Source: Chloroflexota bacterium (GTDB lineage Bacteria > Chloroflexota > Limnocylindria > Limnocylindrales > CSP1-4). Taken from it: 31,435 nucleotides of DNA. Positions within the stretch are counted from its first letter, which is position 1. The number at the start of each line of letters is the position of its first letter. Position numbers and translations under genes: made by a program. The notes beneath the pieces are model-generated. The model saw nothing but the letters and a program-made list of their open reading frames with translations. It searched no databases and had not been told where the DNA came from. The stretch is from the NCBI GenBank assembly GCA_031416295.1, contig JANOTJ010000277.1, positions 1-31,435 on the forward strand. Direction: 5' to 3'. Shown in pieces: positions 12,936 to 30,700 of the stretch.

Positions 12936-14110
12936 CCGGCGACACGTGGGCCCGACGCCCGCGGGAAGCTGATCCAGCCGACCAGCGCGGCCAGCACTGC
13001 CAGGACGGAGCCGAGGCCGAACAGGGCGACGTGCCCGCCGCCCTCGTACAGCAGCCCACCGACGACATTCGCGATGACCGCGGCGATGCCGAAGGCCGTC
13101 GTCTGGAAGAGCGCCTGGCCCGTCGCCTGGAGCTCGGCCGGCAGGAGGACCGCGATCGTGAGCACCACCGCGACGACGATGCCCGAGAAGGCCACCCCGG
13201 TCACGACCCGCGTGGCCACGATCGCCAGTGGCACGTCGAGCACGGTCCACGACGCAAGGCACACGGCGTACAGCAGGGCGCTCACCGAGAAGATGGCCCG
13301 CAACCCGACACGGGATACCAGCGCGCCCATCACCAGGATCGCCGGGACCTCGGTGCCCGCCGACACGCCCGAGGCCAGGGCGATGTCACCCGGCGAGCCG
13401 CCCAGCGACTCGATCCGCAGGGACAGGAAGGTGAAGCCACTGATGATCCCGATGTGCAGCAGTCCGCTGGCCAGGAGGACCAGGCCGAGCCGCGGCGCGA
13501 CCCGCAGCGCGACCCCGCTCGAGCCGAAGCTGAACGTTCGTCGGCCGCTCACGGCCGTGGTCCGTCGGTGCGCGTCGAGGTCCGCCCGGGCCGCATCCGG
13601 GATGGCCGATGCGGCCACGACCATGACCAGGGCAGCGGCCGCGAAGAGCACGAAGGCCCAGGCGTACCCCGTCCGGTCGTAGAGCTGCCCCGCGAGAACG
13701 GCCGCGACAGCGAAGCCGAGGCTGGTGAACAGTCTGACCTTCGCGTAGTCGCGACCGCGGAGCGCGTTCACCGTGATCGCGTCGGTCAGCGGCTGCCACG
13801 ACGACTCGAAGACCCAGAACAGCACGAACAGCGCGACGATGAGCAACGGCGTTGCGGGCAGGAGCAGGGCCGCGACCGCGGCGCCACCGCCCAGCGCGCA
13901 CAGCTGCAGGGTCCGCGGCCGTCCGAGGCGCACGTCCGCCAGGTGGCCCCAGGCGGGCACGGCGATGGTGAACCCGACCGCCCCGACCGACGAGATGAGG
14001 CCGATCTCGCCGGGCGTGAACCCGAAACCGGCGAGAATCACGGAGATGAACGGGTACAGGACCCCCAGCGCGACCCCGAGCGCCGTGACCAGGATATGCA
14101 GGGCGATCAC
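12893..14110 (-). CDS. MFS transporter (LacY / nucleoside:H+ symporter-like)
   Basis: About 12 hydrophobic segments, WGHLADVRLGR loop motif, DYAKVRLFTSLGFA. GTGA overlap with the galK stop. Confidence 0.85.
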   Translation of the reverse strand: MIALHILVTALGVALGVLYPFISVILAGFGFTPGEIGLISSVGAVGFTIAVPAWGHLADVRLGRPRTLQLCALGGGAAVAALLLPATPLLIVALFVLFWVFESSWQPLTDAITVNALRGRDYAKVRLFTSLGFAVAAVLAGQLYDRTGYAWAFVLFAAAALVMVVAASAIPDAARADLDAHRRTTAVSGRRTFSFGSSGVALRVAPRLGLVLLASGLLHIGIISGFTFLSLRIESLGGSPGDIALASGVSAGTEVPAILVMGALVSRVGLRAIFSVSALLYAVCLASWTVLDVPLAIVATRVVTGVAFSGIVVAVVLTIAVLLPAELQATGQALFQTTAFGIAAVIANVVGGLLYEGGGHVALFGLGSVLAVLAALVGWISFPRASGPRVAGQAGRLSPEIASDA

Positions 14111-15282
14111 GCGACGCGGCGAGCCCCGTCAGCAGCGCGGACCGGGATGACCTTCGGCACCAGGCCGGTCCGTGCGGAGTACGTCGCGAAGACCGCCTCG
14201 CGCAGGGCATCGACGGCCTCGTCGTGCACGAGGTTGACCGTGCAGCCGCCGAAACCGGCGCCCGTGAGCCGCGCGCCGATGACGCCCGGGACCACCGAGG
14301 CGATCTCGACCAGCGCATCGAGCGCCGGCGAGCTGACCTCGAAGCGATCGCGCAGCGAGGCATGGCTGGCGGCGAATGCCCGTCCGACGGCGTCGAGGTC
14401 CCCGGCGTGGAGCGCTTCGATGGTGGCCAGCACTCGCTCGTTCTCGTGGACGATGTGGTCGGCGCGCTTGTAGGCCTGGGCATCCAGGCGATCGGCACCG
14501 GCCGCAAGCAGCGCCTCGGTCACGTCACGCAGGGCGCGGATGCTCGGGTCCAGCGCGCGCAGGCCCGTCACCGCCCGTTCGCACTCGGCGCGACGAGTGT
14601 TGTACTCGGACGCCGCGAGCTTGCGCGGCGAGCCCGAGTGACAGATCACGAGGCTCGTCCCGGCCGGCAGCGGCACCGCCCGATGCTCCAGGCTCCGGCA
14701 GTCCAGCAGCAGCGCGTGGTCCGCGACGCCGAAGGCCACCGCGAACTGGTCCATCAGCCCGGAGTTGACGCCGACGTAGGCGTTCTCGGCGCGCTGCGCG
14801 GTCTGGGCCAGGCGCATCGTATCGATCGCCGGCCGCTCGCCGCCGGACAGGGCCCATGCCGACGCCATCTCGATCGCGGCCGACGACGACAGGCCCGCGC
14901 CGGACGGCAGGTCGGAGTTCAGCAGGCCCCGGAACCCACGCGTCGCGAGGCCGGCCTCAGCGAGCGCCCAGGCCGTGCCCGCCGCGTAGTCGATCCAGCG
15001 TCCGCGGCGCTCGCCCGTGGCGTCGAGATCGAAGCCGTCGCGCTCGCCGGTATCGCGCAAGGTCAGCTCCACGCGCCGGTCGTTACTCGGGATGAGCGCG
15101 ATGCTGATGCCCAGGTCGATGGCGGCAGGGAGGACGAAGCCCTCGTTGTAGTCGGTGTGCTCGCCGATCAGGTTGACCCGGCCGGGGGCGTGGACGACGC
15201 GTATGGCCGACGGGTTTGCCGCGGCCAGCGGCTCGAGATCGACGAGTCGCGCGGCGAGGTTTGCGGGCAGCGCTGGGTCCAT
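14107..15282 (-). CDS. galK: Galactokinase
   Basis: [28 protein letters not shown] motif [36 protein letters not shown]. Start ATG 15282, inside track ORF 14107..16401. Confidence 0.97.
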
Positions 15283-15291
15283 GCACTCGCA

Positions 15292-15297
15292 AGCGTA
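15292..15297 (-). promoter_or_regulatory. Candidate -10 hexamer (TACGCT) for galK-MFS
   Basis: 9 nt upstream of ATG 15282, no Shine-Dalgarno. Confidence 0.4.
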
Positions 15298-15360
15298 GCC
15301 GGGCGTGGCGGTGCATACCGGCTGCGCGCACGCGCAGGTTCGATTCGCGGCAGACTTCCG

Positions 15361-16377
15361 ATGCCGATGACCGATCCCACCCTCGCCCTGCGCGCCACTG
15401 GCCTCGGTCGGCGCTTCGGCGACCGCTGGGCCGTCCGGGACGTGTCCCTCGACGTGCATCGGGGCGAGGTCCTCGGGCTGCTCGGGCCCAATGGCGCGGG
15501 CAAGACGACGACGGTCCGGATGCTCACGGCGCTCATCGAGCCGACCGAAGGCACGGCCACGGTGGATGGTCTTGACGTGGTCAGCGAGGCGGACGAGGTG
15601 CGCGCACGGGTCGGCGTCCTGACCGAGACGCCGGGGCTCTACGACAAGCTGTCGGCCCGGGCGAACCTGGACTTCTTCGGGCGGCTGTACGGCCTCGAGG
15701 CGGCGGACCGCGCCGAGCGCATCGAGCGCTACCTGCGCCTCTTCGCGCTGTGGGACCGGCGCGACGATAGCGCCGGCACGTTCAGCAAGGGCATGAAGCA
15801 GAAACTGGCCATCGCCCGGGCGCTGCTCCACGACCCGGCGGTGGTGTTCCTCGACGAGCCGACGGCGGCCCTCGATCCGGAGGCCGCGTTCGTGGTCCGC
15901 GAGGCGATCGAGGAGCTGCGCCGGGCCGGTCGCACGATCGTGCTCGCGACCCACAACCTCGACGAGGCGGACCGGCTGTGCGACCGGATCGCGTTCGTTC
16001 GCGGCGGCCTGCTGCGGGTCGATTCGCCGGCGCACCTGCGGGGCAGCCACGGGGAGCGCCGGTTGACCGTGCGCCTCGGTTCCGGCATCGCCGGCGTGGC
16101 CGACGTGGCCGGCGTGGCTGCGTCCCTGGAACCGCCCATCGACCCGGCCATCTCGGCCGCCGTCGGCGCCGTGGCCGGGGTCACCTCGACCCAACTGGTC
16201 GATGGTCTCCTGCACGTCGTCGCGTCCGATCCGGCGGCCGTGGCGCCATCGGTCGTGCGCGCGCTCGTTGGCGTTGGCGCGGACGTGATCGAGGTGCGCG
16301 TCGAGCGGCTGTCCCTGGAGGCCATCTACTTCGAGATCATGGGCGTCCGGCCGGGCGCCGAGGGGGAGGCCGCCTGA
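15361..16377 (+). CDS. ABC-2-type exporter ATP-binding protein
   Basis: Walker [10 protein letters not shown], signature [15 protein letters not shown], Walker B FLDEPT, H-loop ATHNLDEA. Start ATG 15361 or 15367. Confidence 0.93.
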
Positions 16378-17165
16378 TGCGCCCCTCGATCCTGTGGACA
16401 CTGCTGCGCCGCGAGTGGATGGAGATGGTCCGCAATCGCCTGCTGGTCTCCACGATCCTCGTCCCGCCGCTGATCCTGACCGTGGCGCCGATCCTGCTCG
16501 CGGCCGCGGTCGGCGAACGGGCGTTGCCGGCGCAGCTCGCTGAGCAGGTGCTGTTGCAGCGGCCGGACTGGGCCGGCTTCTCGCAAGGCGAATTGGCCGG
16601 CGCCTTCGCGGTCCAGCAGTTCCTCGTGTTCTTCCTGCTCATGCCTGCCTACATCCCGCTGTCCATCGCCACGTTCAGCATCATCGGCGAGAAACAGGCG
16701 CGCTCCCTGGAGCCAGTCCTCGCGGCGCCGATCCGGACCGTGGAGCTGCTCGCGGGCAAGTCCATCGCGGCCCTGGTGCCTGGCGTCCTGGCGGGGCTCG
16801 TCACGTACATCGTGTTCGTGGCGCTCGCGTCGGTCGTCTACGGGCCGAACCTGTTCGGGGTCGTCACGGACCCGTCATGGCTGGCCGGTGTGTTCCTGCT
16901 CGGGCCGGCGGTCGGGCTCCTCTCGGTCGTCGCCGGGGTCATCGTCAGCGCCCGGGTCAACGATCCTCGCGTCGCCCAGCAGATCGGCGGAGTGATCATC
17001 GTGCCCATCGTGGGCGTAGTCCTGGTCCAGGCCACAGGGACCGTGCTGGTCGGTGCCGTCGGGTACGTCGTGCTGGCCTCGATCATCCTGGCCGTGGCGT
17101 TGGTCGGCCTGCGGATCGGCGTGAAGCTGTTCGATCGAGAGGCGATCCTGACCCGCTGGCGGTAG
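16377..17165 (+). CDS. ABC-2-type exporter permease
   Basis: LLRREW N-terminus, IIGEKQARSLEPVLAAPI, LAGKSIAA, about 6 TM segments. TGATG overlap with the ATPase gene. Confidence 0.9.
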   Translation: MRPSILWTLLRREWMEMVRNRLLVSTILVPPLILTVAPILLAAAVGERALPAQLAEQVLLQRPDWAGFSQGELAGAFAVQQFLVFFLLMPAYIPLSIATFSIIGEKQARSLEPVLAAPIRTVELLAGKSIAALVPGVLAGLVTYIVFVALASVVYGPNLFGVVTDPSWLAGVFLLGPAVGLLSVVAGVIVSARVNDPRVAQQIGGVIIVPIVGVVLVQATGTVLVGAVGYVVLASIILAVALVGLRIGVKLFDREAILTRWR

Positions 17166-19483: not shown

Positions 19484-19565
19484 GCGGCCCACGTCCCGCC
19501 CGTCAGGCGGCGAGGTCACGCCCATCGGGCGGCCACGTCCCGCCCGTCAGGCTGCGAGGTCACGC
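19484..19565. repeat. Direct repeat, two 33-bp copies with period 44
   Basis: CCACGTCCCGCCCGTCAGGC(G/T)GCGAGGTCACGC at 19489-19521 and 19533-19565, one mismatch. The second copy contains the SRPBCC stop codon. Confidence 0.85.
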
Positions 19566-20072
19566 GACGGGCGACCGCTCAGCCGCCTCGGAGCGCTCCT
19601 TGAGCAGGCGCAGGTGCGCCTCCACGCGCGATGCCAGCGTTGCCCGGCCGAGTCGCACAAGGATGGTCGCCCAGCGGTCCGCGGGTTCAAGCATGCCGCT
19701 GTGACTGACCCTGGTGCCGCCCGCGACCGGCTCGAGACGCCACGCCCACTCACTCTCGAAGCCCGAGCCCGTGACGCGCATCCGGAACATCGATTCGGGC
19801 CGAGCTTCCAGGCTCTCGGCGCGAGCTCGTTCGCGAAGCAGGCCCAGCCGAGCGCGTCCGGTCCGGCTGGTCGCGGCGGCGGGCCACGACGGTCCGGCTG
19901 GTCCGAACTCGACCTCGGGAAAGATGGCGCCCAGCGCCGCCGGGTCGTGGAGGGTCGCCCAGACCACGCGGGGAGACGCCTGCATGAAGACGCGGCGCTC
20001 GATGACGCCGTCGGCGCGGCGGTGGTCACCGGGTCGCCGGTACCCGACCTCGGGATCCGGACGCAGGGCCAC
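19560..20072 (-). CDS. SRPBCC/START-fold protein (polyketide cyclase/dehydrase family)
   Basis: IERRVFMQASPRVVWATLHDP start, SEWAWRLEPVAGGTRVS, C-terminal helix LRLLKERSE. Confidence 0.75.
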   Translation of the reverse strand: MALRPDPEVGYRRPGDHRRADGVIERRVFMQASPRVVWATLHDPAALGAIFPEVEFGPAGPSWPAAATSRTGRARLGLLRERARAESLEARPESMFRMRVTGSGFESEWAWRLEPVAGGTRVSHSGMLEPADRWATILVRLGRATLASRVEAHLRLLKERSEAAERSPVA

Positions 20073-20075
20073 GGC

Positions 20076-20975
20076 TCAGACGCCGATGGGGTGCCAGACC
20101 GTCTTCATCTCCAGGAACGCGGCGATCCATTCCGGGCGTTCGCTCGCGCGATCGTCCAGCCAATCGAAGCGAGCCTCGGACACGGTCGTCGGGCGGCGCA
20201 GCACGCGCTTGATGTCGTCGGCGGCGAGCTGTTCGGTCTCGAGCCGCATCGTGTCCGGAACGCCCCAGGTGTCCAGAGCATCCACGTCCACGTGGCCCGC
20301 AAGCACGGGCACCAGCTCACGCTTGTGGCCGGTCAGGATGTTGACGACGCCGCCCGGCACGTCGGATGTGGCGAGGACCTCGCCGAGGGTCACCGCCGGC
20401 AGTGGCCGCGTCTCCGAGGTGACCAGCACGACCGTGTTGCCGCTGACCAGCGGCGGGGCCAGCCGGCTCACGAGTCCGAGCAGTGAGGACGTCTCGGGCG
20501 CCACGATGCCCACGACTCCCGTGGGCTCGGGAATGGTGAAGTTGAAGTACGGCGCCGCGACCGGATTGCTGGAGCCCAGGACCTGGGCGATCTTGTCCGC
20601 CCAGCCGGCGTACCAGACCCAGCGATCGATGGCCCGGTCGACAGCGCTTCGTGCACGCGCGTCGCTGATGCCCTCGGCGGTCGCGACCTCGGCCGTGAAC
20701 TGGTCGCGTCGGCCCTCCATGAGCTCCGCGACCCGATACAGGATCTGGCCACGGTTCATGGCGGTCTTGCGGGCCCACCCAGTCTGTGCAGCACGGGCGG
20801 CCCGGACGGCATCGCGGAGGTCCTTGCGCGAGGCCCGGCAGGCGTTGGCCAGCGGGGTCCCATCGGCACCGTGCACGAGGTACGAGCGCCCGCTCTCCGT
20901 GCGCGGGAAGGCGCCGCCGATGTACAGCTTGTAGGTCTTGCGGACCTCGATACGCGGCGCGCGGTCGGCCGGCAT
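20076..20975 (-). CDS. Short aldehyde dehydrogenase-family protein lacking the catalytic domain
   Basis: KTYKLYIGGAFPRTESGR, WVWYAGWADK, EPTGVVGIVAP, GNTVV, GVVNILTG; no catalytic Cys segment. GGAGG RBS and TGATG overlap with the upstream ALDH. Confidence 0.88.
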   Translation of the reverse strand: MPADRAPRIEVRKTYKLYIGGAFPRTESGRSYLVHGADGTPLANACRASRKDLRDAVRAARAAQTGWARKTAMNRGQILYRVAELMEGRRDQFTAEVATAEGISDARARSAVDRAIDRWVWYAGWADKIAQVLGSSNPVAAPYFNFTIPEPTGVVGIVAPETSSLLGLVSRLAPPLVSGNTVVLVTSETRPLPAVTLGEVLATSDVPGGVVNILTGHKRELVPVLAGHVDVDALDTWGVPDTMRLETEQLAADDIKRVLRRPTTVSEARFDWLDDRASERPEWIAAFLEMKTVWHPIGV

Positions 20976-22498
20976 CAGCGATCCTCCAGGCGCACGTACG
21001 CGTGCAGCCCATGCATGCCGCCCTCGCGCCCGAAGCCGGATTCCTTGAAGCCGCCGAACGGCGAGGTCGGATCGAATCGATTGAAGGTGTTGGCCCAGAC
21101 CACGCCCGCCTTCATCTTGCTGACCATGTCCAGGATGCGCGAGCCCTTGTCGGTCCAGATGCCGGCGGACAGGCCGTAGGGCGTGTTGTTGGCCTTTTCG
21201 ACGGCCTCATCCGGGGTCCGGAACGTGAGCACGGAGAGCACCGGCCCGAAGATCTCCTCGGATGCGATGCGATGGCTCATGGCCACGTTGGTGAACAGCG
21301 TCGGGCGAAAGTAGTAGCCGCGCTCGGGCAGGTCGCAGGCGGGCTGGTACAGCTCCGCGCCCTCGGCGACGCCCGACGCCACGAGCTCCGTGATGCGCTC
21401 GAGCTGGGCGCGCGAGTTGATCGCCCCGACGTCGGTGTTCTTGTCCAGGGGGTCGCCCACGCGCAGGGTGGCCAGTCGATCCTTGAGCTTCTCGATCAAC
21501 GTGTCCTGGATCGATTCCTGGACGAGCAGCCGTGAACCCGCGCAGCACACCTCGCCCTGGTTGAAGTAGATGCCATTGACGATACCCTCGATCGCCTGGT
21601 CCAGTGGTGCGTCGTCGAAGACGATGTTGGCGGCCTTGCCGCCGAGCTCCAGGGTGAGCGCCTTGTCCGTGCCGGCCACCCCCCGAAAGATCTTGCGACC
21701 GATCTCCGTCGAGCCAGTGAACGCGACCTTGTCCACGCCCGGGTGGGTGACCAGGGCCATCCCGACCTCGCCAGGGCCAGGCACGATGTTGACCGTGCCC
21801 GGGGGCAGGTCCGCCTGCACGCAGACGTCCGCGAACAGGAGCGCCGACAGGGGCGTGGTGGACGCGGGCTTGAGCACGACCGTGTTGCCGGCGGCGAGGG
21901 CCGGGGCGATCTTCCAGGCGAGCATCAGCAACGGGAAGTTCCACGGGATGATCTGCGCAGCGACCCCGAGCGGTCGGGCCACGCGCCCCGGGAACAGATA
22001 CTCGAGCTTGTCCGCCCAGCCGGCGTAGTACCAGAAGTGGCTGGCGGCGAGGGGCACGTCCACGTCGCGTGATTCCTTGATGGGCTTGCCCGAGTCCATC
22101 GATTCGAGGACGGCGAACTCGCGCGAGCGCTCCTGGAGGATTCGGCTGATCCGGAACAGGTACTTGGCCCGCTCCTTGCCGCTGAGCTGACCCCACGATC
22201 GGCGATAGGCTCGGCGCGCGGCCCGGACTGCCTTGTCCATGTCGGCCGGCGTCGCGCGGGCGACCTGCGCGAGCGGCAACTCCGTGGACGGGTCGATGGT
22301 CGTGAACGTGGCGCCGTCCGACGAACGTACCTCGCGGCCGTTGATGAACAGCCCGTAGTGCTCCTTGAGCGTGACGATGTCGCGGGCCTCGGGCGCCGGG
22401 GCGTAATCCCAGGGGATCGCCTGGCCGTCGCCGAAGCCCCAGGAGTTGGGCGCCGACGATGGCGCGGGTACGACGGTGGAGTCGGATCGGGTGACCAT
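20975..22498 (-). CDS. Aldehyde dehydrogenase (full length)
   Basis: IIPWNFPLLM, KPASTTP, FTGSTEIG, LELGGKAANIV (Glu), FNQGEVCCAGSR (Cys), EEIFGPV, PFGGFKESGFGRE. Start ATG 22498 (7 nt after CATAAT) or ATG 22507 overlapping the DGC stop. Confidence 0.95.
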   Translation of the reverse strand: MVTRSDSTVVPAPSSAPNSWGFGDGQAIPWDYAPAPEARDIVTLKEHYGLFINGREVRSSDGATFTTIDPSTELPLAQVARATPADMDKAVRAARRAYRRSWGQLSGKERAKYLFRISRILQERSREFAVLESMDSGKPIKESRDVDVPLAASHFWYYAGWADKLEYLFPGRVARPLGVAAQIIPWNFPLLMLAWKIAPALAAGNTVVLKPASTTPLSALLFADVCVQADLPPGTVNIVPGPGEVGMALVTHPGVDKVAFTGSTEIGRKIFRGVAGTDKALTLELGGKAANIVFDDAPLDQAIEGIVNGIYFNQGEVCCAGSRLLVQESIQDTLIEKLKDRLATLRVGDPLDKNTDVGAINSRAQLERITELVASGVAEGAELYQPACDLPERGYYFRPTLFTNVAMSHRIASEEIFGPVLSVLTFRTPDEAVEKANNTPYGLSAGIWTDKGSRILDMVSKMKAGVVWANTFNRFDPTSPFGGFKESGFGREGGMHGLHAYVRLEDR

Positions 22499-22505
22499 CG
22501 CGGCC

Positions 22506-22511
22506 ATTATG
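22506..22511 (-). promoter_or_regulatory. Candidate -10 hexamer (CATAAT) overlapping the DGC stop codon
   Basis: One mismatch from TATAAT, 7 nt before ATG 22498. Confidence 0.5.
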
Positions 22512-24498
22512 GCACCGGGTCCGGATGGTCCTCCGCCTGCACCGGGTCCGGATGGTCCTCCGCCTGCGCCGTGTCCGGTGGCAGCGGGCTCGGAACGGTC
22601 CGGTCCCGGCCGCCGTCCTTGGCCGCGTAGAGCGCCCTATCAGCGCGGGCGATGAGCGCCGGGATCGATTCATGGCCATCCCAGGTGGCGGTGCCGGCCG
22701 AGGCGGTCGCGTTGCCCGGCACGCCCGCGCGCAGCCGGTCCGCGACGAGGATGGCCGCGGCCGCATCGCACGCGACAAGCACGGCCAGGAATTCCTCTCC
22801 TCCATAGCGTGCAAGCGTGTCGCCGGGACGCAGCTCGCCCATCCAGGCGGCCGCGACGCCGCGCAACAGGTCGTCGCCGGCCTGGTGTCCGCGCTCATCG
22901 TTGAAACGCTTGAAGTGGTCGAGATCGAGCATCGCCACCGACACCGGCCGCCCGGACCGTCGTCCGTTCGCGATGGCCAGATCCAGGGCCTCATCGAGGG
23001 CGCGCCGGTTCGCCGCACCGGTCAGCGCATCCGTGCGGACCAGGTGCTCGAGCCTGGTCAGCAGATCGGAGCGCTCGATGACGGCCGCCACCTGGGTCGC
23101 AAACAGTCCGATGAGCGCGCTGGTGCGCTCCGGAAGCGAACGCATGGTGGTGCGCCAGTAGATGACGACGACCCCGACCGCGCGGTCGTCGCTCTCGATA
23201 GGCTGCCAGTACGCGGCGCCCGCATCCACGCGCTTCGCAACGGCCGGATCCACCCGCGGGTCCGCGGCAAGATCCCCCGAGAACACGGGCACGCCGCTCC
23301 GGAGCACCTGGCCCGCGATCGAGCGGTCGGGGTCCAGGACGATGTCCGCCCGGATGCCCGCGCCGCTCGAGGCACCGGACACGACCAGCCGGCCATCGGG
23401 ACCGTCAGCGGTGTAGAAGAGGACGAAGTCGGCATCGGCGAGTCCCCGTGCCGCATCGCAGATGACCGCCCGACCCTCACTGGAGGACTGCCCCAGCTCG
23501 CGGGCGACGGCCAGCAGCCGGGCCAGATCAGCGAGGTGGTCACGTGCCCCGCGCTCGGCATCGCGGCGAACGGTCGTGTCTCGGACGAACGCGTGGATGC
23601 GGATCCCGGTCGGCCCGTCGGTCCGAGCCACGGAGATCTCCACGGGTACCCGTGAGCCGTCGGCGCGGCGGAGGTCCGCCTCGAAGCGCACCTCGCGGTC
23701 CGTGGGACCTTGCTGGACGATGACCCGCCCGAATCCGGCGCGCAGCCGCTCGATGTGCTCGTCGGGGACCAGCGTGTCGAACACGTCCGACCCGACGAGG
23801 TCGTCGCGTCCGAACATCAAGGCAGCCGCGTCGTTGGCGGTCATGATCGTTCCCGACGCGTCGAAGGACAGGACTGCGTCCGACGCGGCCTGCACGATGG
23901 CCTGGATGACATCGCGTTGCTCGGCGAGCTCGCGACCGCGGGCCACGGCGCGTTCCGTGCTCGCCTGCGACGCGTGGACCAGGGACTGGACGATCAAGCC
24001 CATGGTCGCCCCGACCAGAGTCAGGATGATCAGCCGTCGCCACTCACCGAACGGGTATGCCGGGTCACCGACCACGATGATCGGCACGGCCAGGACGACC
24101 ATCGTCCCGATCACGCAGGCGATGAGCTGCGAGCGCTGTCCATAGAGCGCGACCCACATGACCGGGAGGAGAACGAGCGGCGCATAGCCCGAGGGGCCAC
24201 CCCCGGCTGCCTCGCGGATTGCGCCAACGGCTGCGAGGTAGACAAGAGGCGGCAGGACGTCCGCCCACATCGGCAGCCGACGCCAGGGCACGACCAGCGC
24301 CAGCCCGATGGTCAGGGCGGTCAGGATCGTGCCGATGGCAAGCCAGGTGACGTGGAGGTCGCGAGCCTCAGCGGCGCCGAGGACCACCGCGGCGACCGCG
24401 GCAGTTGCGAAAGGCGCCACCCGGCCGACCAGACCTTCCCGGTCGAAGGGACGCCGTCGGGCCTCGTCGTGCGCTCCGGTCAGTATGCCGTCGTGCAT
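22507..24498 (-). CDS. Membrane-anchored diguanylate cyclase (about 6 TM + PAS + GAF + GGDEF)
   Basis: TDALTGAANRR, DLDHFKRFNDERGHQAGDDLL, I-site RPGD, active-site ARYGGEEF, ADRALYAAKDGGRD; PAS segment AASDAVLSFDASG...RRADGSRVPVEIS. Confidence 0.92.
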   Translation of the reverse strand: MHDGILTGAHDEARRRPFDREGLVGRVAPFATAAVAAVVLGAAEARDLHVTWLAIGTILTALTIGLALVVPWRRLPMWADVLPPLVYLAAVGAIREAAGGGPSGYAPLVLLPVMWVALYGQRSQLIACVIGTMVVLAVPIIVVGDPAYPFGEWRRLIILTLVGATMGLIVQSLVHASQASTERAVARGRELAEQRDVIQAIVQAASDAVLSFDASGTIMTANDAAALMFGRDDLVGSDVFDTLVPDEHIERLRAGFGRVIVQQGPTDREVRFEADLRRADGSRVPVEISVARTDGPTGIRIHAFVRDTTVRRDAERGARDHLADLARLLAVARELGQSSSEGRAVICDAARGLADADFVLFYTADGPDGRLVVSGASSGAGIRADIVLDPDRSIAGQVLRSGVPVFSGDLAADPRVDPAVAKRVDAGAAYWQPIESDDRAVGVVVIYWRTTMRSLPERTSALIGLFATQVAAVIERSDLLTRLEHLVRTDALTGAANRRALDEALDLAIANGRRSGRPVSVAMLDLDHFKRFNDERGHQAGDDLLRGVAAAWMGELRPGDTLARYGGEEFLAVLVACDAAAAILVADRLRAGVPGNATASAGTATWDGHESIPALIARADRALYAAKDGGRDRTVPSPLPPDTAQAEDHPDPVQAEDHPDPVP
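22512..22567. repeat. Perfect 27-bp tandem duplication in the DGC C-terminal tail
   Basis: GCACCGGGTCCGGATGGTCCTCCGCCT at 22512-38 and 22539-65; encodes QAEDHPDPV twice. Confidence 0.9.
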
Positions 24499-24506
24499 GT
24501 CTCGTC

Positions 24507-25484
24507 TCAGCAGTCGTACGCCGCGACCGGGTGCACCCGTTCGCAGTAACGGACATGGACATGGTTGTCGTGGCCCGTGGACCAGGACGTGAGACCCTCG
24601 CGGACGAGCACCGGATCGTTGAAGTAGATGAGCTTGATGTGTCCCGGCGCCGTGGCCCGGATGGCCTTGATGAGATCGCGCGTGGCGGCTCGGTCATAGG
24701 TGGACCAGCGGTAGTTCACGCCCCACCTGCACTGTGCGCGGTCGGTGCGCATCGGGCGCACGTCCACGTCCAGCCCGCGCTCATGGCTGTCGTGTCCGGG
24801 GATGTCCCCACCGTGCTCGAACCCGACATCGCCAACGGCCACGCGCCCGTGGCCGAGGTTCTCCACGACGGACGCTGCGGCCTCCATCTGGCCGATGGCT
24901 GCGGCCGTGCCCCAGTCGGCGAGGCCGTTGCCGACCTGGTAGTCGCAGACCTTGCTGCCGAACGCCGGTCGCTCGAAGTGGGCGATGAGCGCCTGCCACG
25001 TGACGGCGCCGACGATGCCCGTCTCGCCGATCCGCGCGTGGCGCTGGAAGGAGCGCAACGCACCCTGCGTGAGCGCACCGTACACGCCGTCGACGGGCAC
25101 GCCGGCGGCACGCTTCTCGTTGAGTTGGCGCTGGAGGGCCCTGACCGCCTCTCCGGTGCTCCCGGGAGCCACCCGGACGAGCAGGGCCGCCCACGTGTGC
25201 TGGCCGACCTTGCCGTCCACGGTGAGGCCGCGGCTGGCCTGGAAGGTCCGGACCGCGGCCACGGTGGTCGTGCCGTACACGCCGTCCACCCGGTCCGCCA
25301 TCGAGCCATGGTGGCGGAGGAAGCCCTGGATGGCCTTCACGTCGACGCCGCGGTTGCCCAGGCTCTGGTGCGGGAACGCCAGTGCAGCCGTCGCGGTCGC
25401 GGCACCCGCCGGGCCGATCGTCGTCAGTACGGCCGCCAGGGTAAGGGCCAGGGTCGCGAGCCCCCGTCGCGTCGGCCCGCTCAT
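24507..25484 (-). CDS. Secreted peptidoglycan-binding protein with a penicillin-insensitive murein endopeptidase (MepA-like, LAS-type Zn) domain
   Basis: Signal peptide (TRRGL...AGA); two PG_binding_1-like repeats (DGVYGTTTVAAVRTFQASRGLTVDGKVG and DGVYGALTQGALRSFQ); HDSHERGLDVD and HDNHVHVR. GGAGGT RBS and ATGA overlap with the PfkB gene. Confidence 0.82.
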   Translation of the reverse strand: MSGPTRRGLATLALTLAAVLTTIGPAGAATATAALAFPHQSLGNRGVDVKAIQGFLRHHGSMADRVDGVYGTTTVAAVRTFQASRGLTVDGKVGQHTWAALLVRVAPGSTGEAVRALQRQLNEKRAAGVPVDGVYGALTQGALRSFQRHARIGETGIVGAVTWQALIAHFERPAFGSKVCDYQVGNGLADWGTAAAIGQMEAAASVVENLGHGRVAVGDVGFEHGGDIPGHDSHERGLDVDVRPMRTDRAQCRWGVNYRWSTYDRAATRDLIKAIRATAPGHIKLIYFNDPVLVREGLTSWSTGHDNHVHVRYCERVHPVAAYDC

Positions 25485-26407
25485 GCGCCGACCTCCATCT
25501 CGCGGGCGTACGGTGGCTCGGCTCCCGCCCGCCCCACGGTCAGCGCCGCGACCCGACTGCCGAAGCGCGCGGCGGCGGTCACGGCGTCGATGACGCGGAG
25601 GTCCTCGCGGGTCCGTCCGCCGCGCACCCAGGCATGCAGGAACCCAGCGCCGAACGCGTCGCCCGCGCCGACCGTGTCGACCACCTCGACAGGCGGTACG
25701 GCCAGGGTCACCCGCTGCGGGCCGACCGCCACCACGATCGGGTCGCCGCCGGCCGTGCACAGGACCGCCCTCGAACCACCCGAAGCCGGCGAGGCGATGG
25801 CCGAGAGTGCCGCCTGGAGGTCGAGGTCCGGGTACAGGAACCGCAGGTCGTCGGTACTCACCTTGATCACGTCGGCCCGGGCCAGGATCCGCTCGACCCG
25901 CGCCCGGTAGGCGACGGCGTCGGGTGTGGCCGTCGGCCGCGCATTGACATCGACCATGACCAGGGTCGTGTCCGGGACCCTGCCGACAAGGGCTTCGAGC
26001 GTCGTGGCCATGGGCTCCAGCACGAGCCCGAGCGTGCCCAGGTGGAGGGCCCCGGGGGCGCGCGCGAGCGCACCCTGGATGGACGTGTCGGCGAGGCCCG
26101 GAGCCGACGTCCCGAGCGTGTAGAACCGATACGACGCCGCACCGGATCCGTCGAGCTCGGCCACGGCGAGGGTCGTCGGATCGTCGGTCGCGACAAGCAG
26201 GTCCAGGGCGACGCCATCGAGCTCCAGATTCGCCCGGAGGCGCTGGCCGAAGCGATCCCGCGAGACCCGACCCAGAAACGCGACCGCGCCGCCCAGGCGT
26301 CCGATCGTCCGCGCCGTGTTGTACGGCCCACCACCGGGCATGGCTGCGAGGCGCCCGTCCGGCGACGCGATCAGATCGATGAGCGCCTCACCGGCGACGA
26401 TGATCAC
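25481..26407 (-). CDS. PfkB-family carbohydrate kinase (fructokinase-like)
   Basis: IVAGEALIDL, PGGGPYNTARTIGRLG, DVNARP, DVIKVS, VVDTVGAGDAF. GTG start at 26407. Confidence 0.92.
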   Translation of the reverse strand: MIIVAGEALIDLIASPDGRLAAMPGGGPYNTARTIGRLGGAVAFLGRVSRDRFGQRLRANLELDGVALDLLVATDDPTTLAVAELDGSGAASYRFYTLGTSAPGLADTSIQGALARAPGALHLGTLGLVLEPMATTLEALVGRVPDTTLVMVDVNARPTATPDAVAYRARVERILARADVIKVSTDDLRFLYPDLDLQAALSAIASPASGGSRAVLCTAGGDPIVVAVGPQRVTLAVPPVEVVDTVGAGDAFGAGFLHAWVRGGRTREDLRVIDAVTAAARFGSRVAALTVGRAGAEPPYAREMEVGA

Positions 26408-26460
26408 GGCACCTCCGCCTACCTCGCGTGGTCCCAGGGTCGCGAGTCGGGACCCGCGAC

Positions 26461-26470
26461 AGGATACCCT
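26461..26470. promoter_or_regulatory. Overlapping divergent -10 hexamers (TATCCT on minus, TACCCT on plus)
   Basis: AGGATACCCT lies in the 73-bp gap between the divergent pfkB and methyltransferase genes. Confidence 0.4.
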
Positions 26471-26480
26471 CCGAGTCCTG

Positions 26481-27242
26481 ATGCGACGCACCCCCGACGT
26501 CGAGGAACTGCTCGACGGCCCGCTCGACGATCCGGCCGCGCTGATCGGTAACCTGCGCGACCTGCGCCGGGTGAACCGCTGGCTGGGTGGAGTCAGCCTC
26601 TCCGGCGGAGCCCTCGATGCCCTGGTCGCCGACATCTGGCGCGGCCCCGACGATGACCGCATCGTGACGATGCTCGATGTCGGGACGGGGGGCGCCGACA
26701 TCCCGGCGGCGCTGGTCCGCCGGGCGCGGCTGGGCCACGAAAGACGCCGATCGGGTCGGGTTCGAGCGATCGCCCTGGACAGCCGCCCGGAGATCCTCGC
26801 CGCGGCGCTCGTCGCGGACCCGGCCCTGGAGGACCTCATCGCATCCGCGGACCTGACCATCGAACTCGGCGATGGTCGGTCGCTGCCCTACCCCGATCGC
26901 TCCATCGATGTCGTCCATTGCTCGCTCGTCGTGCACCACCTGGCGCCAGAGGAGGTCGTCACGCTGGTGCGCGAGATGGTCCGCGTCGCGCGGCTCGGGA
27001 TCATCGTCAATGACCTCATCCGGGGTCGTGCGGCGTACCTCGGCGCCTGGCTGCTCACGCGCGTCACGACACGTAATCGATACACCCGACACGATGCGCC
27101 GATGTCCGTTCGCCGTGCCTACACCCGGGCGGAGTTGCTGGCCATGCTCGCGCAGGCCGACCTTGACGTCGTCTGGCGCGGGACCGGGCTGCTCGGCCAT
27201 CGATGGGCGCTGGCGGCACGGGCGCGGCAACGGACATCGTGA
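26481..27242 (+). CDS. Class I SAM-dependent methyltransferase
   Basis: ELLDG N-terminal motif, motif I LDVGTGGAD, LPYPDRSIDVVHCSLVVHHL, NDLIR, TRHDAPMSVRRAYT. Start ATG 26481. Confidence 0.9.
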   Translation: MRRTPDVEELLDGPLDDPAALIGNLRDLRRVNRWLGGVSLSGGALDALVADIWRGPDDDRIVTMLDVGTGGADIPAALVRRARLGHERRRSGRVRAIALDSRPEILAAALVADPALEDLIASADLTIELGDGRSLPYPDRSIDVVHCSLVVHHLAPEEVVTLVREMVRVARLGIIVNDLIRGRAAYLGAWLLTRVTTRNRYTRHDAPMSVRRAYTRAELLAMLAQADLDVVWRGTGLLGHRWALAARARQRTS

Positions 27243-28468
27243 CCTCGAGGACGGTGGTCGTCGTGGGCGGTGGTCCGGCCGGTGCGGTCCTCGCCACGTA
27301 CCTCGCCCGCGCCGCACTGGAGGTCACCCTCGTGGAACGCGCTCCGGCATGGCGATGGCGGGCCTGCGGCGTATTCAGTTCGCCCGCGACGATGGCCGCC
27401 CTGCGGCGGGTCGGCCTGGCCGAGGCCGACCTTGCCCGCGTCGCGCGAGCGATCCCGGCCATGCGCCTGGAAACCACGGGCGGCGCGGTCGTGCGGCTGA
27501 CCTACGGCGCGGCCGGCGCCGAGCACCCGACCGCGGTGGGCTTTGACCGCTCCGCGCTGGACCCGCTGCTGCTCGCCACGGCGCGGGCGGCGGGTGTCGA
27601 CATTCGCACCGGCGTGACCGTCCGCAGCGTGTCGCTGGCTGCGCCCGGAGGCGGCGCCGAGTTGGACCTGGTGGGGCCCGATGGCGCCACGCGACTCACG
27701 GCCCGGATCGTCGTGGGCGCCGATGGCGCGAACTCGAGCGTGGCTCGGGCGGCCGGCGTGCACCGGGCGACCCGCCTCGGCCGGCGCGTCGGACTCAGTC
27801 ACCACCTGCCCGACCCGCGGATCGACGAGCTCGCCCTCGACGGTCGCCTGCGCGTGCTCCGCGATGGGTACGTCGGCATCGCCCCGGTGCCGGGCCGTCG
27901 GGTGAACATCGGGATCGTGCTGGGCCGGACGTGGTCGGCGGCGCTCGCGGCGCGCGGGGCGGACGCCGTGGCCGCCGAGATCGTCGCGGGCATCCCTCCG
28001 ACCGACGACGATCCGGCCCCGTGGCGGGGCTCCGACCCGTGCGAGCGGGTCGCTGGCGCCGCACCGCTCGGGGTCCGCGTCACACGGCGCGCGGGACCTG
28101 GCTGGCTGCTCGTTGGCGACGCCGCGGGGTTCCTGGACCCGTTCACCGGAGAGGGCCTGCACCGGGCACTCGTGTCGGCCGAACTCGGTGCGTCGGCCGT
28201 TCGCGCGGCGCTCGATGGGCCGCCCGGTGACGGCGATCGAGCGATGGCCGCCTATGAGCGCTCGATGCGCCGGCGGTTCGCGACCAAGGACGCCGTTTCG
28301 ACCCTGGTCCAGCTGTTCCTTGCCCGGCCGGCGCTCCTGGAATACGCCGCACGACGACTCGCCGCGCGGCCCGGCGTCCGTGCGACCATGAGCCTCGTGA
28401 TGGGCGACCTCGTCCCGGCCTCCCGCGGGCTCGATCCCCGCTTCCTTGCCGCGCTCCTCGCGCCGTGA
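27239..28468 (+). CDS. FAD-dependent oxidoreductase (geranylgeranyl reductase / aromatic hydroxylase superfamily)
   Basis: VVGGGPAG, DRSALD, VVGADGANS, LVGDAAGFLDPFTGEGLHRAL. GTGA overlap with the methyltransferase stop. Confidence 0.88.
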   Translation: MTSRTVVVVGGGPAGAVLATYLARAALEVTLVERAPAWRWRACGVFSSPATMAALRRVGLAEADLARVARAIPAMRLETTGGAVVRLTYGAAGAEHPTAVGFDRSALDPLLLATARAAGVDIRTGVTVRSVSLAAPGGGAELDLVGPDGATRLTARIVVGADGANSSVARAAGVHRATRLGRRVGLSHHLPDPRIDELALDGRLRVLRDGYVGIAPVPGRRVNIGIVLGRTWSAALAARGADAVAAEIVAGIPPTDDDPAPWRGSDPCERVAGAAPLGVRVTRRAGPGWLLVGDAAGFLDPFTGEGLHRALVSAELGASAVRAALDGPPGDGDRAMAAYERSMRRRFATKDAVSTLVQLFLARPALLEYAARRLAARPGVRATMSLVMGDLVPASRGLDPRFLAALLAP

Positions 28469-28917
28469 CGATCCGAGGCGAGGTAGCGCCAGGCCCGCCC
28501 GGCCGGACCCGCCTGGCGGCGTACACCCTGTGCCTCGACGAGCGCGGCCGTGTGCTGCTCTGCCACATCGCCCCATCCATCGGCCTCGGCGACATCTGGA
28601 CGCTGCCGGGCGGCGGCGTGGAGTTCGGAGAAGCGCCCATCGACGCGGCCCTGCGCGAACTCACCGAGGAGACCGGGCTGCGCGGCGAGATCATCGAGCT
28701 CCTCGACGTCAGCGACCGCCTCTTCAGCGCGGGCAGTGGCGCCGTGCCGCTGCATGCCATCCGCATCGTGTACCGCGTCCGGATCGTGGGCGGCGAACTG
28801 CGCGACGAGACGGATGGCTCCACGGACACGGCCGGATGGTTCGGCCCGGGCGAGACCGCGCGGATGCGCCTCGGCGAACTGTCGCGACACATGCTCGCGC
28901 GCACCTCGGGACGCTGA
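28465..28917 (+). CDS. NUDIX hydrolase
   Basis: Nudix box GGGVEFGEAPIDAALRELTEETGL. GTGA overlap with the upstream gene. Confidence 0.9.
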   Translation: MTIRGEVAPGPPGRTRLAAYTLCLDERGRVLLCHIAPSIGLGDIWTLPGGGVEFGEAPIDAALRELTEETGLRGEIIELLDVSDRLFSAGSGAVPLHAIRIVYRVRIVGGELRDETDGSTDTAGWFGPGETARMRLGELSRHMLARTSGR

Positions 28918-28922
28918 CCAGG

Positions 28923-29426
28923 ATGCACAGCGAGATCGCCATCGACATCGATGCTCCGGCGGCTGTCGTCTTCGCCCTCGCCCGCGACGTCGAGCGCTGG
29001 GCGACCTTCCTGCCCCACTACCGACGCTCAACGGCCATCGTGCGGAGCGCCGACGACAGTCTCATCGTCGACTTCATCGCCCGCCGACCGCTCATCGATG
29101 TCCTCGGCCTGGGCCTGCCGGTCACCTGGCGCTCGCGTACCTGGAGCGAGCCCGAGACGCTGCGCCTGCGCTTCGTCCACGTCGCGGGCGCGACGAAGAG
29201 CATGGACGTCACCTGGCGCATCGAGCCGCGCGACGACGGTGACGGGTGCCGGGTGACCATCGAGCACGACTTCCGGCCTCGATTGCCAGGGTTCGCGACG
29301 GTCGTGGAGCGCTGGTTCACGCGGCCCATCGCGGGCCGCACCCTGGACACGTTCAAGGCGCTCGCCGAGGCGATCGCGCCGCTCGTCCGGTCCGCACCGG
29401 CGCCCACCACGGACCATGCGACATGA
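28923..29426 (+). CDS. SRPBCC/START-fold protein, aromatase/cyclase-like
   Basis: SEIAIDIDAPAAVVFALARDVERWATFLPHY, TWRSR, MDVTWRIEP, VTIEHDF, C-terminal helix IAGRTLDTFKALAE. Start ATG 28923. Confidence 0.82.
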   Translation: MHSEIAIDIDAPAAVVFALARDVERWATFLPHYRRSTAIVRSADDSLIVDFIARRPLIDVLGLGLPVTWRSRTWSEPETLRLRFVHVAGATKSMDVTWRIEPRDDGDGCRVTIEHDFRPRLPGFATVVERWFTRPIAGRTLDTFKALAEAIAPLVRSAPAPTTDHAT

Positions 29427-30700
29427 GCACGCCGCGCCGCCGGATCTGGATCACCGGGATCGGGGTCATCACGGCAATCGGCACGGGCGTAAACGCGTTC
29501 CGGGCGGGTCTTCGGGCCGGACGCTCGCCGGTCAAGCGCATCGACCGCTTCGATCCAGCGCCGTTCCGCTCGCAGGTCGCGGCCCAGGTGGACGACTTCG
29601 ACCCGCTGACGTGGATGGACGCGAAGACGGCCCGCCAGCTCGATCGGTTCAGCCAGTTCGGGCTGGTCGTGGGGCGCCTGGCGCTCGAGGACGCCCGGTT
29701 CGTGCCGGGCGCCCATGGCGCGGCCGCGCCGGAGCGGATCGGGATCTACCTCGGCTCGGCGCTGGGGGGCATCGCCTATGCCGAGGCCCAGCACGAGCGG
29801 TTCCTGGACAAGGGGATCCGCCAGGTCGCCCCGAACCTCGCCCTGGCGGTCTTCGGCGGCGCGGCCCCGGCCAACCTCGGTATCGCGCTCGGTGTCCGCG
29901 GCCCGATCCTGTCCACGGCCAACTCGTGCGCATCGGGAGCGGTGGCGCTGGGCGAAGCCCTCGGCGACCTGCGCGAGGGCCGGGTGGATGCGGCCATCGC
30001 CGGTGGCTGCGAGATCCCGCTCTCGCCCCTCGCCTTCGGGGCCTTCGACATCATCCGGGCGCTGTCGGCCGGTCGCAACGACGATCCGGGCTCGGCGGCC
30101 CGGCCATTCGACGCGGACCGCGACGGGTTCGTGATGGGCGAGGGCGCCGCGCTCCTGGTCCTGGAGGAGGCCGAGGCCGCAGAACGGCGCGGAGCCACGC
30201 CCTACGCGGAGGTCCTCGGCTACGGCGCGAGCTCCGACGCCCACCACATGGTCCAGCCCCGCGCCGACGGTCGGGAAGCGGCCCGCGCGGCCTCCATCGC
30301 GCTGGCCGACGCCCGGGTAGAGCCCGCCCGGATCGACTACGTGAATGCCCACGCGTCGTCGACCCCGCTCGGGGACGTGGCCGAGGCCCGGGCGATCGCT
30401 TTGGCCCTCGGGCCACGGGCACGTGACGTGCCGGTCAGCGGGACCAAGGCACTGTACGGGCACCCGCTCGGTGCCTCGGGGGCCATCGAGGCGGCCATCT
30501 GCGCGCTGGCCATCCGCGATGGCTGGGCACCCGCGTCTGCGAACCTGCGATCGCCCGACCCGGACGTCGCGGCGCTCCTGCCAGGACTGCTGCGCTACGG
30601 GCGCCCGGGCGACTACCGGCGGGTGCTCAGCACCTCGTTCGGCTTCGGCGGGCTGAACGCGGCCCTCGTGTTCGGGACGCCGGACTCCACCGCCGGCTGA
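29423..30700 (+). CDS. Beta-ketoacyl-ACP synthase, KAS II / FabF-like (possibly a dedicated paralogue)
   Basis: WITGIGVITAIG, DRFSQFG, catalytic Cys ANSCASG, PFDADRDGFVMGEGA, His NAHASST, His KALYGHPLGASG, STSFGFGG. ATGA overlap with the SRPBCC gene. Confidence 0.92.
   Translation: MSTPRRRIWITGIGVITAIGTGVNAFRAGLRAGRSPVKRIDRFDPAPFRSQVAAQVDDFDPLTWMDAKTARQLDRFSQFGLVVGRLALEDARFVPGAHGAAAPERIGIYLGSALGGIAYAEAQHERFLDKGIRQVAPNLALAVFGGAAPANLGIALGVRGPILSTANSCASGAVALGEALGDLREGRVDAAIAGGCEIPLSPLAFGAFDIIRALSAGRNDDPGSAARPFDADRDGFVMGEGAALLVLEEAEAAERRGATPYAEVLGYGASSDAHHMVQPRADGREAARAASIALADARVEPARIDYVNAHASSTPLGDVAEARAIALALGPRARDVPVSGTKALYGHPLGASGAIEAAICALAIRDGWAPASANLRSPDPDVAALLPGLLRYGRPGDYRRVLSTSFGFGGLNAALVFGTPDSTAG

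Follow-up and report, generated by a model that had tools for sequence, protein, structure and literature searches.

Operons that join a methyltransferase (MT) and an FAD oxidoreductase to a type III polyketide synthase (PKS) are conserved, as in hidABC (hierridin) and in planctomycete clusters, and make alkylresorcinols (PMC10896814). The products of the srsABC and pkqABC operons are alkyl-quinones, which function as electron carriers (PMC9927152). Here we describe a stretch of DNA of 31,435 nucleotides (the window), contig C277 of a Chloroflexota genome, in which a tailoring pair of this kind stands in one operon with a FabF-like beta-ketoacyl synthase (KS) and a small SRPBCC protein of the helix-grip fold. 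We hold with moderate confidence that this cassette is a KS-plus-cyclase variant of the type III PKS operons for phenolic lipids and polyketide quinones represented by hidABC, srsABC and pkqABC. As in those operons, a PRK06202-like MT is followed in the same order by a flavoprotein of the geranylgeranyl-reductase (GGR) superfamily, and a core synthase occupies the hidC position. This likeness to hidABC (cyanobacterial), the planctomycete operons, srsABC (Streptomyces griseus) and pkqABC (Mycobacterium smegmatis and Streptomyces) was judged via type III PKS operons within the phylum. The cassette differs in having a FabF-clade KS and an SRPBCC protein in place of the type III PKS, and its substrates would therefore be bound to acyl carrier protein (ACP) rather than to coenzyme A. 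On the simplest account, one tailoring pair serves two alternative core synthases, and the cassette product would then belong to a related class, being a phenolic, pyrone or quinone lipid with a long chain.

The conserved unit comprises four genes, MT-FAD-SRPBCC-KS. In a survey of 301 Chloroflexota genomes, SRPBCC homologues (E<=1e-10) were present in 37, from a dozen or more families. In loci from 30 of these 37 genomes, the KS, the flavoprotein and, where the flank reaches, the MT lie beside the SRPBCC gene, and their order is constant in nearly all. The exceptions are an SRPBCC homologue that stands alone (L012/L073; G243:C71, 7754-8215), an MT-SRPBCC pair with no KS or FAD gene nearby (L035/L088; G129:C14, 8349-9581) and a locus with the FAD gene on the opposite strand (L078). 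About 25 loci, spread over many Chloroflexota families, hold the order MT-FAD-SRPBCC-KS, and a Vulcanimicrobiaceae (Eremiobacterota) genome has it too. One other genome has the order MT-SRPBCC-KS-FAD, so that the four genes travel as a group regardless of their arrangement. Further SRPBCC homologues are named from Armatimonadota, Baltobacteraceae, Thermomicrobiales and Herpetosiphonaceae. An earlier note on this DNA had called the operon an orphan and had proposed a survey of its synteny; the gene order proved to be conserved in relatives, and the cassette, far from being an orphan, is widespread across Chloroflexota families and reaches Eremiobacterota.

Close relatives define the limits of the unit. 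The best 80 loci in an alignment search with the MT came from 80 species genomes, all close Chloroflexota relatives. Every one of the 60 loci with enough downstream DNA was complete, and the KS was the best conserved of the cassette proteins (median identity 80%, against 52-62% for the others). The remaining gene of the operon in the window, third in order, encodes a NUDIX hydrolase with an intact Nudix box (GX5EX7REUXEEXGU). This gene is present in 28 of the 60 complete loci and is missing in L008 and in all distant cassettes; of two long contigs of close relatives that carry MT-FAD-SRPBCC-KS, one has it and one does not. It is a lineage-specific insertion outside the conserved core, so that the five-gene unit described earlier holds for this operon and shrinks to four genes in the family. 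In a same-genus genome, the synteny MFS-PfkB-M74 peptidase-Aldh-Aldh-SRPBCC2-EamA is kept and the cassette is missing: MFS and PfkB lie only about 173 bp apart. Among 15 sampled genomes of the host's family, 14 gave no SRPBCC match. The region is thus a real operon, gained or lost as a block, and its conserved linkage together with its clean absence from the same-genus genome mark it as a discrete four-gene accessory module, with the NUDIX gene as a lineage-specific addition.

Beyond local synteny among close relatives, no recurrent extra gene family was found beside the cassette. Literature searches gave no description of a cassette combining a KS with an SRPBCC protein and nothing relevant for 'PRK06202'; the cassette is conserved yet uncharacterised. 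In Eremiobacterota-type cassettes, a gene for a small 2x[4Fe-4S] ferredoxin lies upstream (L040, 7768-8019; L123, 7741-7992), and in L040 the KS is followed by genes for an ABC ATPase, an FtsX-type permease and an AttH-like protein (11697-16338). The neighbours in L040 hint at a ferredoxin-dependent flavoprotein and at export of the product.

The tailoring enzymes provide the link to type III PKS operons. A type III PKS is encoded in 38 of the 301 Chloroflexota genomes, in several cases within a type III PKS-MT-FAD operon; the proteins of such operons share 31-39% (MT) and 27-32% (FAD) identity with those of the window. For both kinds of MT, NF004851 (PRK06202) is by far the best family, at 130-163 bits with the next family below 60 bits, all scores lying below its cut-off; the window MT reaches 130 bits against a cut-off of 243 (next family, 27 bits), and the type III PKS-linked MTs of Chloroflexota reach 151-158 bits. 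In the MT tree, type III PKS-linked and cassette MTs interleave, and two of the former group (99/97) with an MT that adjoins an SRPBCC gene. The flavoproteins behave alike: TIGR02032 is the top family of both the KS-linked and the type III PKS-linked kind, with the same secondary pattern, and the motifs PRxKxC[GA]E and GYCG(L/I)AP are common to both. Thus the pair is of the kind found beside type III PKSs, as the earlier note had stated. It had also suggested that the type III PKS is replaced here. Consistent with this, neither the window nor the host genome, which is 88% complete, gave a match to the type III PKS family PF02797, and none of the 301 genomes holds both a cassette SRPBCC gene (37 genomes) and a type III PKS (38 genomes), where 4.7 would be expected (naive hypergeometric p = 0.005, a statistic that ignores phylogenetic non-independence). 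At the family level, a single family holds both, in different genomes.

The flavoprotein of the window scores 124 bits on TIGR02032, below the 159-bit cut-off, and carries the motifs GxGxxG, GADG..S and GDAAGF.DPFTGEG; its nearest PDB sequences are CmlS, CndH and an archaeal GGR. In the window's lineage, FPRxKxC[GA]E became PAWRWRACGVF (residues 38-48; window 27350-27380; L008, L009, L072), and Limnocylindrales may have come to use a different chemistry here. Within this segment, C43 aligns with the catalytic cysteine of GGR structure 3oz2; in two close relatives, L008 and L009, Leu or Gly takes its place. Where the other GGR motif, YxWxFP, would be expected, the flavoprotein has DGYVGIAPV. 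A halogenase of the CmlS/CndH type was considered and rejected: WxWxIP is absent, and the segment reads GYVGIAPV against GWVWMIPI in CmlS and GWFWYIPL in CndH.

The flavoprotein also brings in the main rival, which is modification of a non-aromatic lipid. The KS would then be a specialised acyl-ACP elongation enzyme, the MT and the GGR-like flavoprotein would methylate and reduce an aliphatic chain, and the SRPBCC protein would act as a lipid-binding or dehydratase-like helper, a logic resembling the MT-plus-flavin-reductase route to 10-methyl fatty acids. The GGR superfamily is indeed the best family of the flavoprotein, PRxKxC[GA]E is kept in most cassette homologues, and a ferredoxin gene adjoins the cassette in L040 and L123. 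However, the MT belongs with the type III PKS-associated PRK06202 family and not with the cyclopropane/mycolic-acid-synthase type, the same MT-FAD pair adjoins type III PKSs that make aromatic lipids, and the lack of co-occurrence between cassette and type III PKS in our sample also argues against a purely aliphatic product. We regard this rival as a real but rather unlikely alternative; the SRPBCC protein and the KS bear on it further.

As judged by profile comparison, the closest characterised relatives of the SRPBCC family are the aromatase/cyclases (ARO/CYCs) of type II PKSs. The family is small: at E<=1e-3 it accounts for 398 of 1.84 billion representatives. Its profile, built from 42 members, matches BexL (3.7e-24), WhiE-ORFVI (~2e-14), TcmN (1.9e-12) and ZhuI (6.9e-10), but the Coq10-like protein 1t17 only at 1.6e-4. 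This ranking, nearer to ARO/CYCs than to a lipid carrier, speaks against the helper role required by aliphatic-lipid modification. An AlphaFold (AF2) model of the protein (pLDDT 95) had TTHA0849 and ARO/CYCs as its top Foldseek matches (TM ~0.7); because plant START proteins reach similar scores, the fold alone is not specific. Residues invariant in the family are W26, L30-P31-H32-Y33-R34, W69, H86, M94, W98 and H115. In a hidden Markov model (HMM) alignment, TcmN W28, F32, Y35, W65, M91 and W95 are matched by the conserved W26, L30, Y33, W69, M94 and W98, and TcmN R82 and Q110 align with the invariant His86 and His115. The protein thus appears ARO/CYC-like with a partly different polar set. 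Since TcmN Arg69 is not kept and the polar residues are partly changed, its assignment to the TcmN type is not secure; the earlier proposal of a START-fold cyclase like TcmN stands as to profile and fold and falls short at the Arg69 position, which is also a point in favour of aliphatic-lipid modification.

Gene fusions tie the SRPBCC family functionally to tailoring enzymes: a KS lies next to a natural FAD-SRPBCC fusion (P0182), and a second fusion joins an ICMT/PEMT-type methyltransferase to SRPBCC (P0232). Apparent SRPBCC-KS 'fusions' (P0127, P0229, P0196, P0168 and others) were set aside as fragmentary domain matches, probably frameshift or gene-call artefacts. A RatA-toxin or Rv0910-toxin identity of the SRPBCC protein was likewise rejected, given a weak 22-bit match and no antitoxin context.

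The same protein raises the alternative of a cassette for tailoring or chaperoning an isoprenoid respiratory quinone, with a MenJ-like side-chain reductase, a UbiE/MenG-like MT, a Coq10/RatA-like quinone-binding START protein and the KS as an unrelated passenger or a supplier of a lipid anchor. PF03364, one of the Pfam families matched by the SRPBCC protein, also covers Coq10-like proteins, SRPBCC homologues are annotated 'RatA' in source records, and there are weak matches to the MenJ (73 bits) and MenG/UbiE (18-56 bits) families. However, these scores are far below the cut-offs and below those for PRK06202 and GG-red-SF, and the ARO/CYCs match far better than 1t17 does. The neighbourhood contains no men or ubi genes, and the KS, the supposed passenger, is better conserved than any other cassette protein and present in every complete locus. 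We consider quinone tailoring improbable.

The KS itself appears to be functional and dedicated to the cassette. Cys169, His310, Lys342 and His347 are conserved in all 38 aligned KSs and the C-terminal SFGFGG is present, so that the Cys-His-His triad named earlier is indeed in place, together with Lys342. Because the residues for condensation are all intact, the enzyme is predicted to be active and decarboxylating. It reaches 434 bits on TIGR03150, the fabF equivalog, below the cut-off of 494, and passes the PRK07314 subfamily cut-off (422 vs 387 bits). On the polyketide KS model NF005490 it reaches 231 bits (cut-off 445) and on AmcF 194 bits; such NCBIfam scores served as a proxy for comparison with KS-alpha/chain-length factor, aryl-polyene and ladderane KSs. 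Its best PDB match is Thermus FabF 1j3n (329 bits), with the actinorhodin KS-alpha lower in the list. This proximity to FabF in HMM score and PDB sequence also favours elongation of an aliphatic chain.

We compared the cassette KSs with 15 FabF-like paralogues from the host genome and five other cassette-bearing genomes. The window KS is 48-86% identical to cassette KSs and at most 42.6% identical to every other KS paralogue. In a maximum-likelihood tree limited to cassette KSs and FabF-like paralogues, one branch with 100/100 support splits 23 cassette KSs from the 15 paralogues. The cassette clade has the signatures GSALGG, with Ala113 where paralogues have Gly, and NANSCASG, with Ala166 and Ser168 where paralogues have Val and Ala; in addition, a loop LALxVFGGAxxxN replaces the paralogues' xPFxxxxxxxxxxG(Q) segment. 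KS residues 137-151, PNLALAVFGGAAPAN, lie within this loop signature. Three further fabF-like genes of full length, with TIGR03150 scores of 514, 510 and 478 bits, are present in the host, so the cassette KS is not its only fabF. No fab or acp genes were found in the window or the related loci. The KS is thus, by sequence and tree, a dedicated paralogue and not the housekeeping FabF: it shares with FabF (KAS II) the fold, the length, the catalytic triad with Lys and the C-terminal GFGG, but it lies below the equivalog cut-off, in a separate clade with altered pocket-loop signatures, away from fab/acp genes and in an accessory position, absent from the same-genus genome. These results bear out the earlier note on the dedicated paralogue, on the segment PNLALAVFGGAAPAN, whose departure from typical FabF is a clade-wide difference from the 15 FabF-like paralogues, and on the presence of a separate fabF; of the phylogeny that it proposed, the comparison with FabF-like paralogues is covered by the tree. 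In one cassette-bearing genome, a FabF gene (574 bits, G287:C1:13459-14679) lies about 7 kb from the cassette KS gene (21649-22869).

A housekeeping or redundant FabF with functionally unrelated neighbours would be a further alternative, and the KS does pass the PRK07314 cut-off and hold all FabF catalytic residues. The higher scores of the other host fabF-like genes, the distinct clade, the four-gene linkage conserved across phyla and also in shuffled order, the absence of the cassette as a block from the same-genus genome and the FAD-SRPBCC fusion that adjoins a KS all argue against it. This explanation is already contradicted by synteny and tree, and we regard it as very improbable.

The cassette also resembles the minimal type II PKSs that work with TcmN, WhiE-ORFVI, ZhuI or BexL, in that a stand-alone KS from the KAS I/II superfamily adjoins a helix-grip protein matching ARO/CYCs, in which the TcmN pocket positions W28, Y35, W65, M91 and W95 are conserved. 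It differs in lacking a chain-length factor, a dedicated ACP and a ketoreductase, in having one KS per cassette, in a KS that scores as FabF (434 bits) and not as KS-alpha (231 bits), and in an SRPBCC family with an unconserved Arg69 position and its own invariant H32, R34, H86 and H115. The earlier note had remarked on the absence of a chain-length factor and ACP from the operon; likewise, neither the cassette nor the roughly 25 related loci contain a chain-length factor or a type III PKS, and a tblastn search of about 40 loci with the host ACP gave nothing at E<=1. A division of labour between a condensing enzyme and a small cyclase is familiar from plants, where tetraketide synthase builds the chain and olivetolic acid cyclase forms the resorcinol; these are a type III PKS and a DABB-fold cyclase, not homologous to the cassette proteins.

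On the KS-plus-cyclase reading, the KS would take a fatty acyl-ACP from primary metabolism and, using the cell's own ACP, condense it decarboxylatively with malonyl-ACP in at least one round, without reduction. The SRPBCC protein would bind the beta-keto chain and direct its cyclisation or release to give a resorcinol- or pyrone-type head group. The flavoprotein and the MT would then tailor the ring, as reported for homologues downstream of type III PKSs, and the end product would be a methylated phenolic or quinone lipid, with the NUDIX hydrolase probably a later lineage-specific addition. Here substrate, number of condensations, cyclisation and product are all inferred. More tentatively than for the cassette as a whole, we suggest that the KS and the small ARO/CYC-like protein, having neither a chain-length factor nor their own ACP, form a two-protein core synthase that works on the housekeeping ACP and makes the alkyl-resorcinol or quinone head group which in other operons is the product of a type III PKS.

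Several points weigh against this reading. We know of no FabF-type KS homodimer that builds a poly-beta-keto chain in the absence of a chain-length factor, and the KS is far nearer to fabF than to polyketide KS-alpha. No ACP, ketoreductase or thioesterase was found in any cassette locus; the want of a chain-length factor, ACP or other PKS parts would equally suit the aliphatic rival. In the SRPBCC protein, the position of TcmN Arg69, presumably a key catalytic residue of TcmN (R69A mutant structure 2res), is Thr73, and Gln in the family consensus. In sequence the flavoprotein is GGR-like, and L040 and L123 have a ferredoxin gene ahead of the cassette, both of which would fit a reductase better than a hydroxylase. 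The link to HidA/B, SrsB/C and PkqB/C is drawn through in-phylum type III PKS operons and family models, and kinship among genomes inflates the co-occurrence figure. A complex prediction for the KS and the SRPBCC protein, run without controls, gave a score of 0.00 and is no evidence either way.

The features of the locus are collected in the table. Gene calls were based on third-position GC (GC3) frame analysis, which gave one coding frame per stretch, and on the junction sequences, since raw lists of open reading frames are noisy at the 71% GC of the window. All five family assignments were borne out by Pfam and NCBIfam searches.

Table. Cassette genes and upstream flank, in window positions.
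Feature	Position	Strand	Remarks
SAM-dependent methyltransferase (MT), 253 aa, PRK06202/NF004851-like	26481-27242	+	Pfam Methyltransf_11/25
FAD-dependent oxidoreductase (FAD), 409 aa, GGR superfamily	27239-28468	+	PF01494, 82 bits
NUDIX hydrolase, 150 aa	28465-28917	+	PF00293, 68 bits; Nudix box at residues 49-71
SRPBCC/helix-grip protein, 167 aa, aromatase/cyclase-like	28923-29426	+	PF10604, PF03364
FabF-like beta-ketoacyl synthase (KS), 425 aa	29423-30700	+	PF00109, PF02801
Divergent intergenic region, 73 bp, PfkB to cassette	26408-26480	no strand	presumed promoter region, from position only
PfkB kinase gene, upstream, divergent	25481-26407	-	

The MT and FAD genes overlap by GTGA, as do the FAD and NUDIX genes; a gap of 5 nt separates NUDIX from SRPBCC, and the SRPBCC and KS genes overlap by ATGA. 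GC3 frames and junction sequence agree with the single operon of five plus-strand genes read earlier. Of the divergent promoter claimed for it, the divergent PfkB gene and the space it leaves are evident, and the promoter itself is presumed from position: a sigma-70 consensus (promoter/terminator) scan of this region gave no match, and such a scan is uninformative at this GC content. At its 3' end, the KS gene overlaps a convergent MFS transporter gene by 88 nt (30613-30700); a similar KS/MFS overlap, of 76 nt, occurs in L009, and in relatives a MerR regulator gene follows the MFS gene.

No other gene related to lipid or polyketide synthesis was found in the rest of the window. A second, unrelated SRPBCC gene (171 aa, PF10604) lies directly downstream of two aldehyde-dehydrogenase genes (19560-22447, minus strand), one of which is short (300 aa) and matches the N-terminal half of the Aldedh profile only; this trio is kept in the relatives L008, L009 and G124. 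Between the M74 peptidase gene and the aldehyde-dehydrogenase genes lies a gene for a PAS-GAF-GGDEF diguanylate cyclase (22507-24498, minus strand), to which nothing matched at the equivalent position in G124 (L126), the same-genus genome. At 14089-16638, long open frames with coding-like GC3 run on both strands (14107-16368, minus; 14089-16377, plus).

The host is a metagenome-assembled genome of 592 contigs and 3.1 Mb, 88% complete, in which one ACP gene was found, on another contig (C376). Close homologues carry the labels Candidatus Limnocylindrales or Chloroflexota. DNA of the locus is present in freshwater-sediment, sediment and soil metagenomes, and a search of sequencing runs listed no RNA data sets, whether the query was the whole operon or just the KS gene.

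If the KS-plus-cyclase reading is true, a fatty-acid-type KS can stand in for a type III PKS with no more than a cyclase-like helper, and the boundaries among type II fatty acid synthases, type II PKSs and type III PKSs are blurred. The cassette would then be one more way, with an evolutionary origin of its own, to make phenolic or quinone membrane lipids in bacteria, spread over several phyla of mostly uncultured soil and sediment organisms. Genome-mining tools may overlook it because it lacks the genes that they could flag, those for a type III PKS, a chain-length factor or an ACP. The cassette is small (~3.8 kb without the NUDIX gene) and self-contained, so the hypothesis is directly testable by heterologous expression. 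Actinobacteria use polyketide quinones as alternative electron carriers when oxygen is limiting (PMC9927152), and an analogous lipid in sediment Chloroflexota would be ecologically interesting. The KS-plus-cyclase reading, if right, would also assign a function to a cassette carried by hundreds of uncultured Chloroflexota, Eremiobacterota and Armatimonadota genomes.

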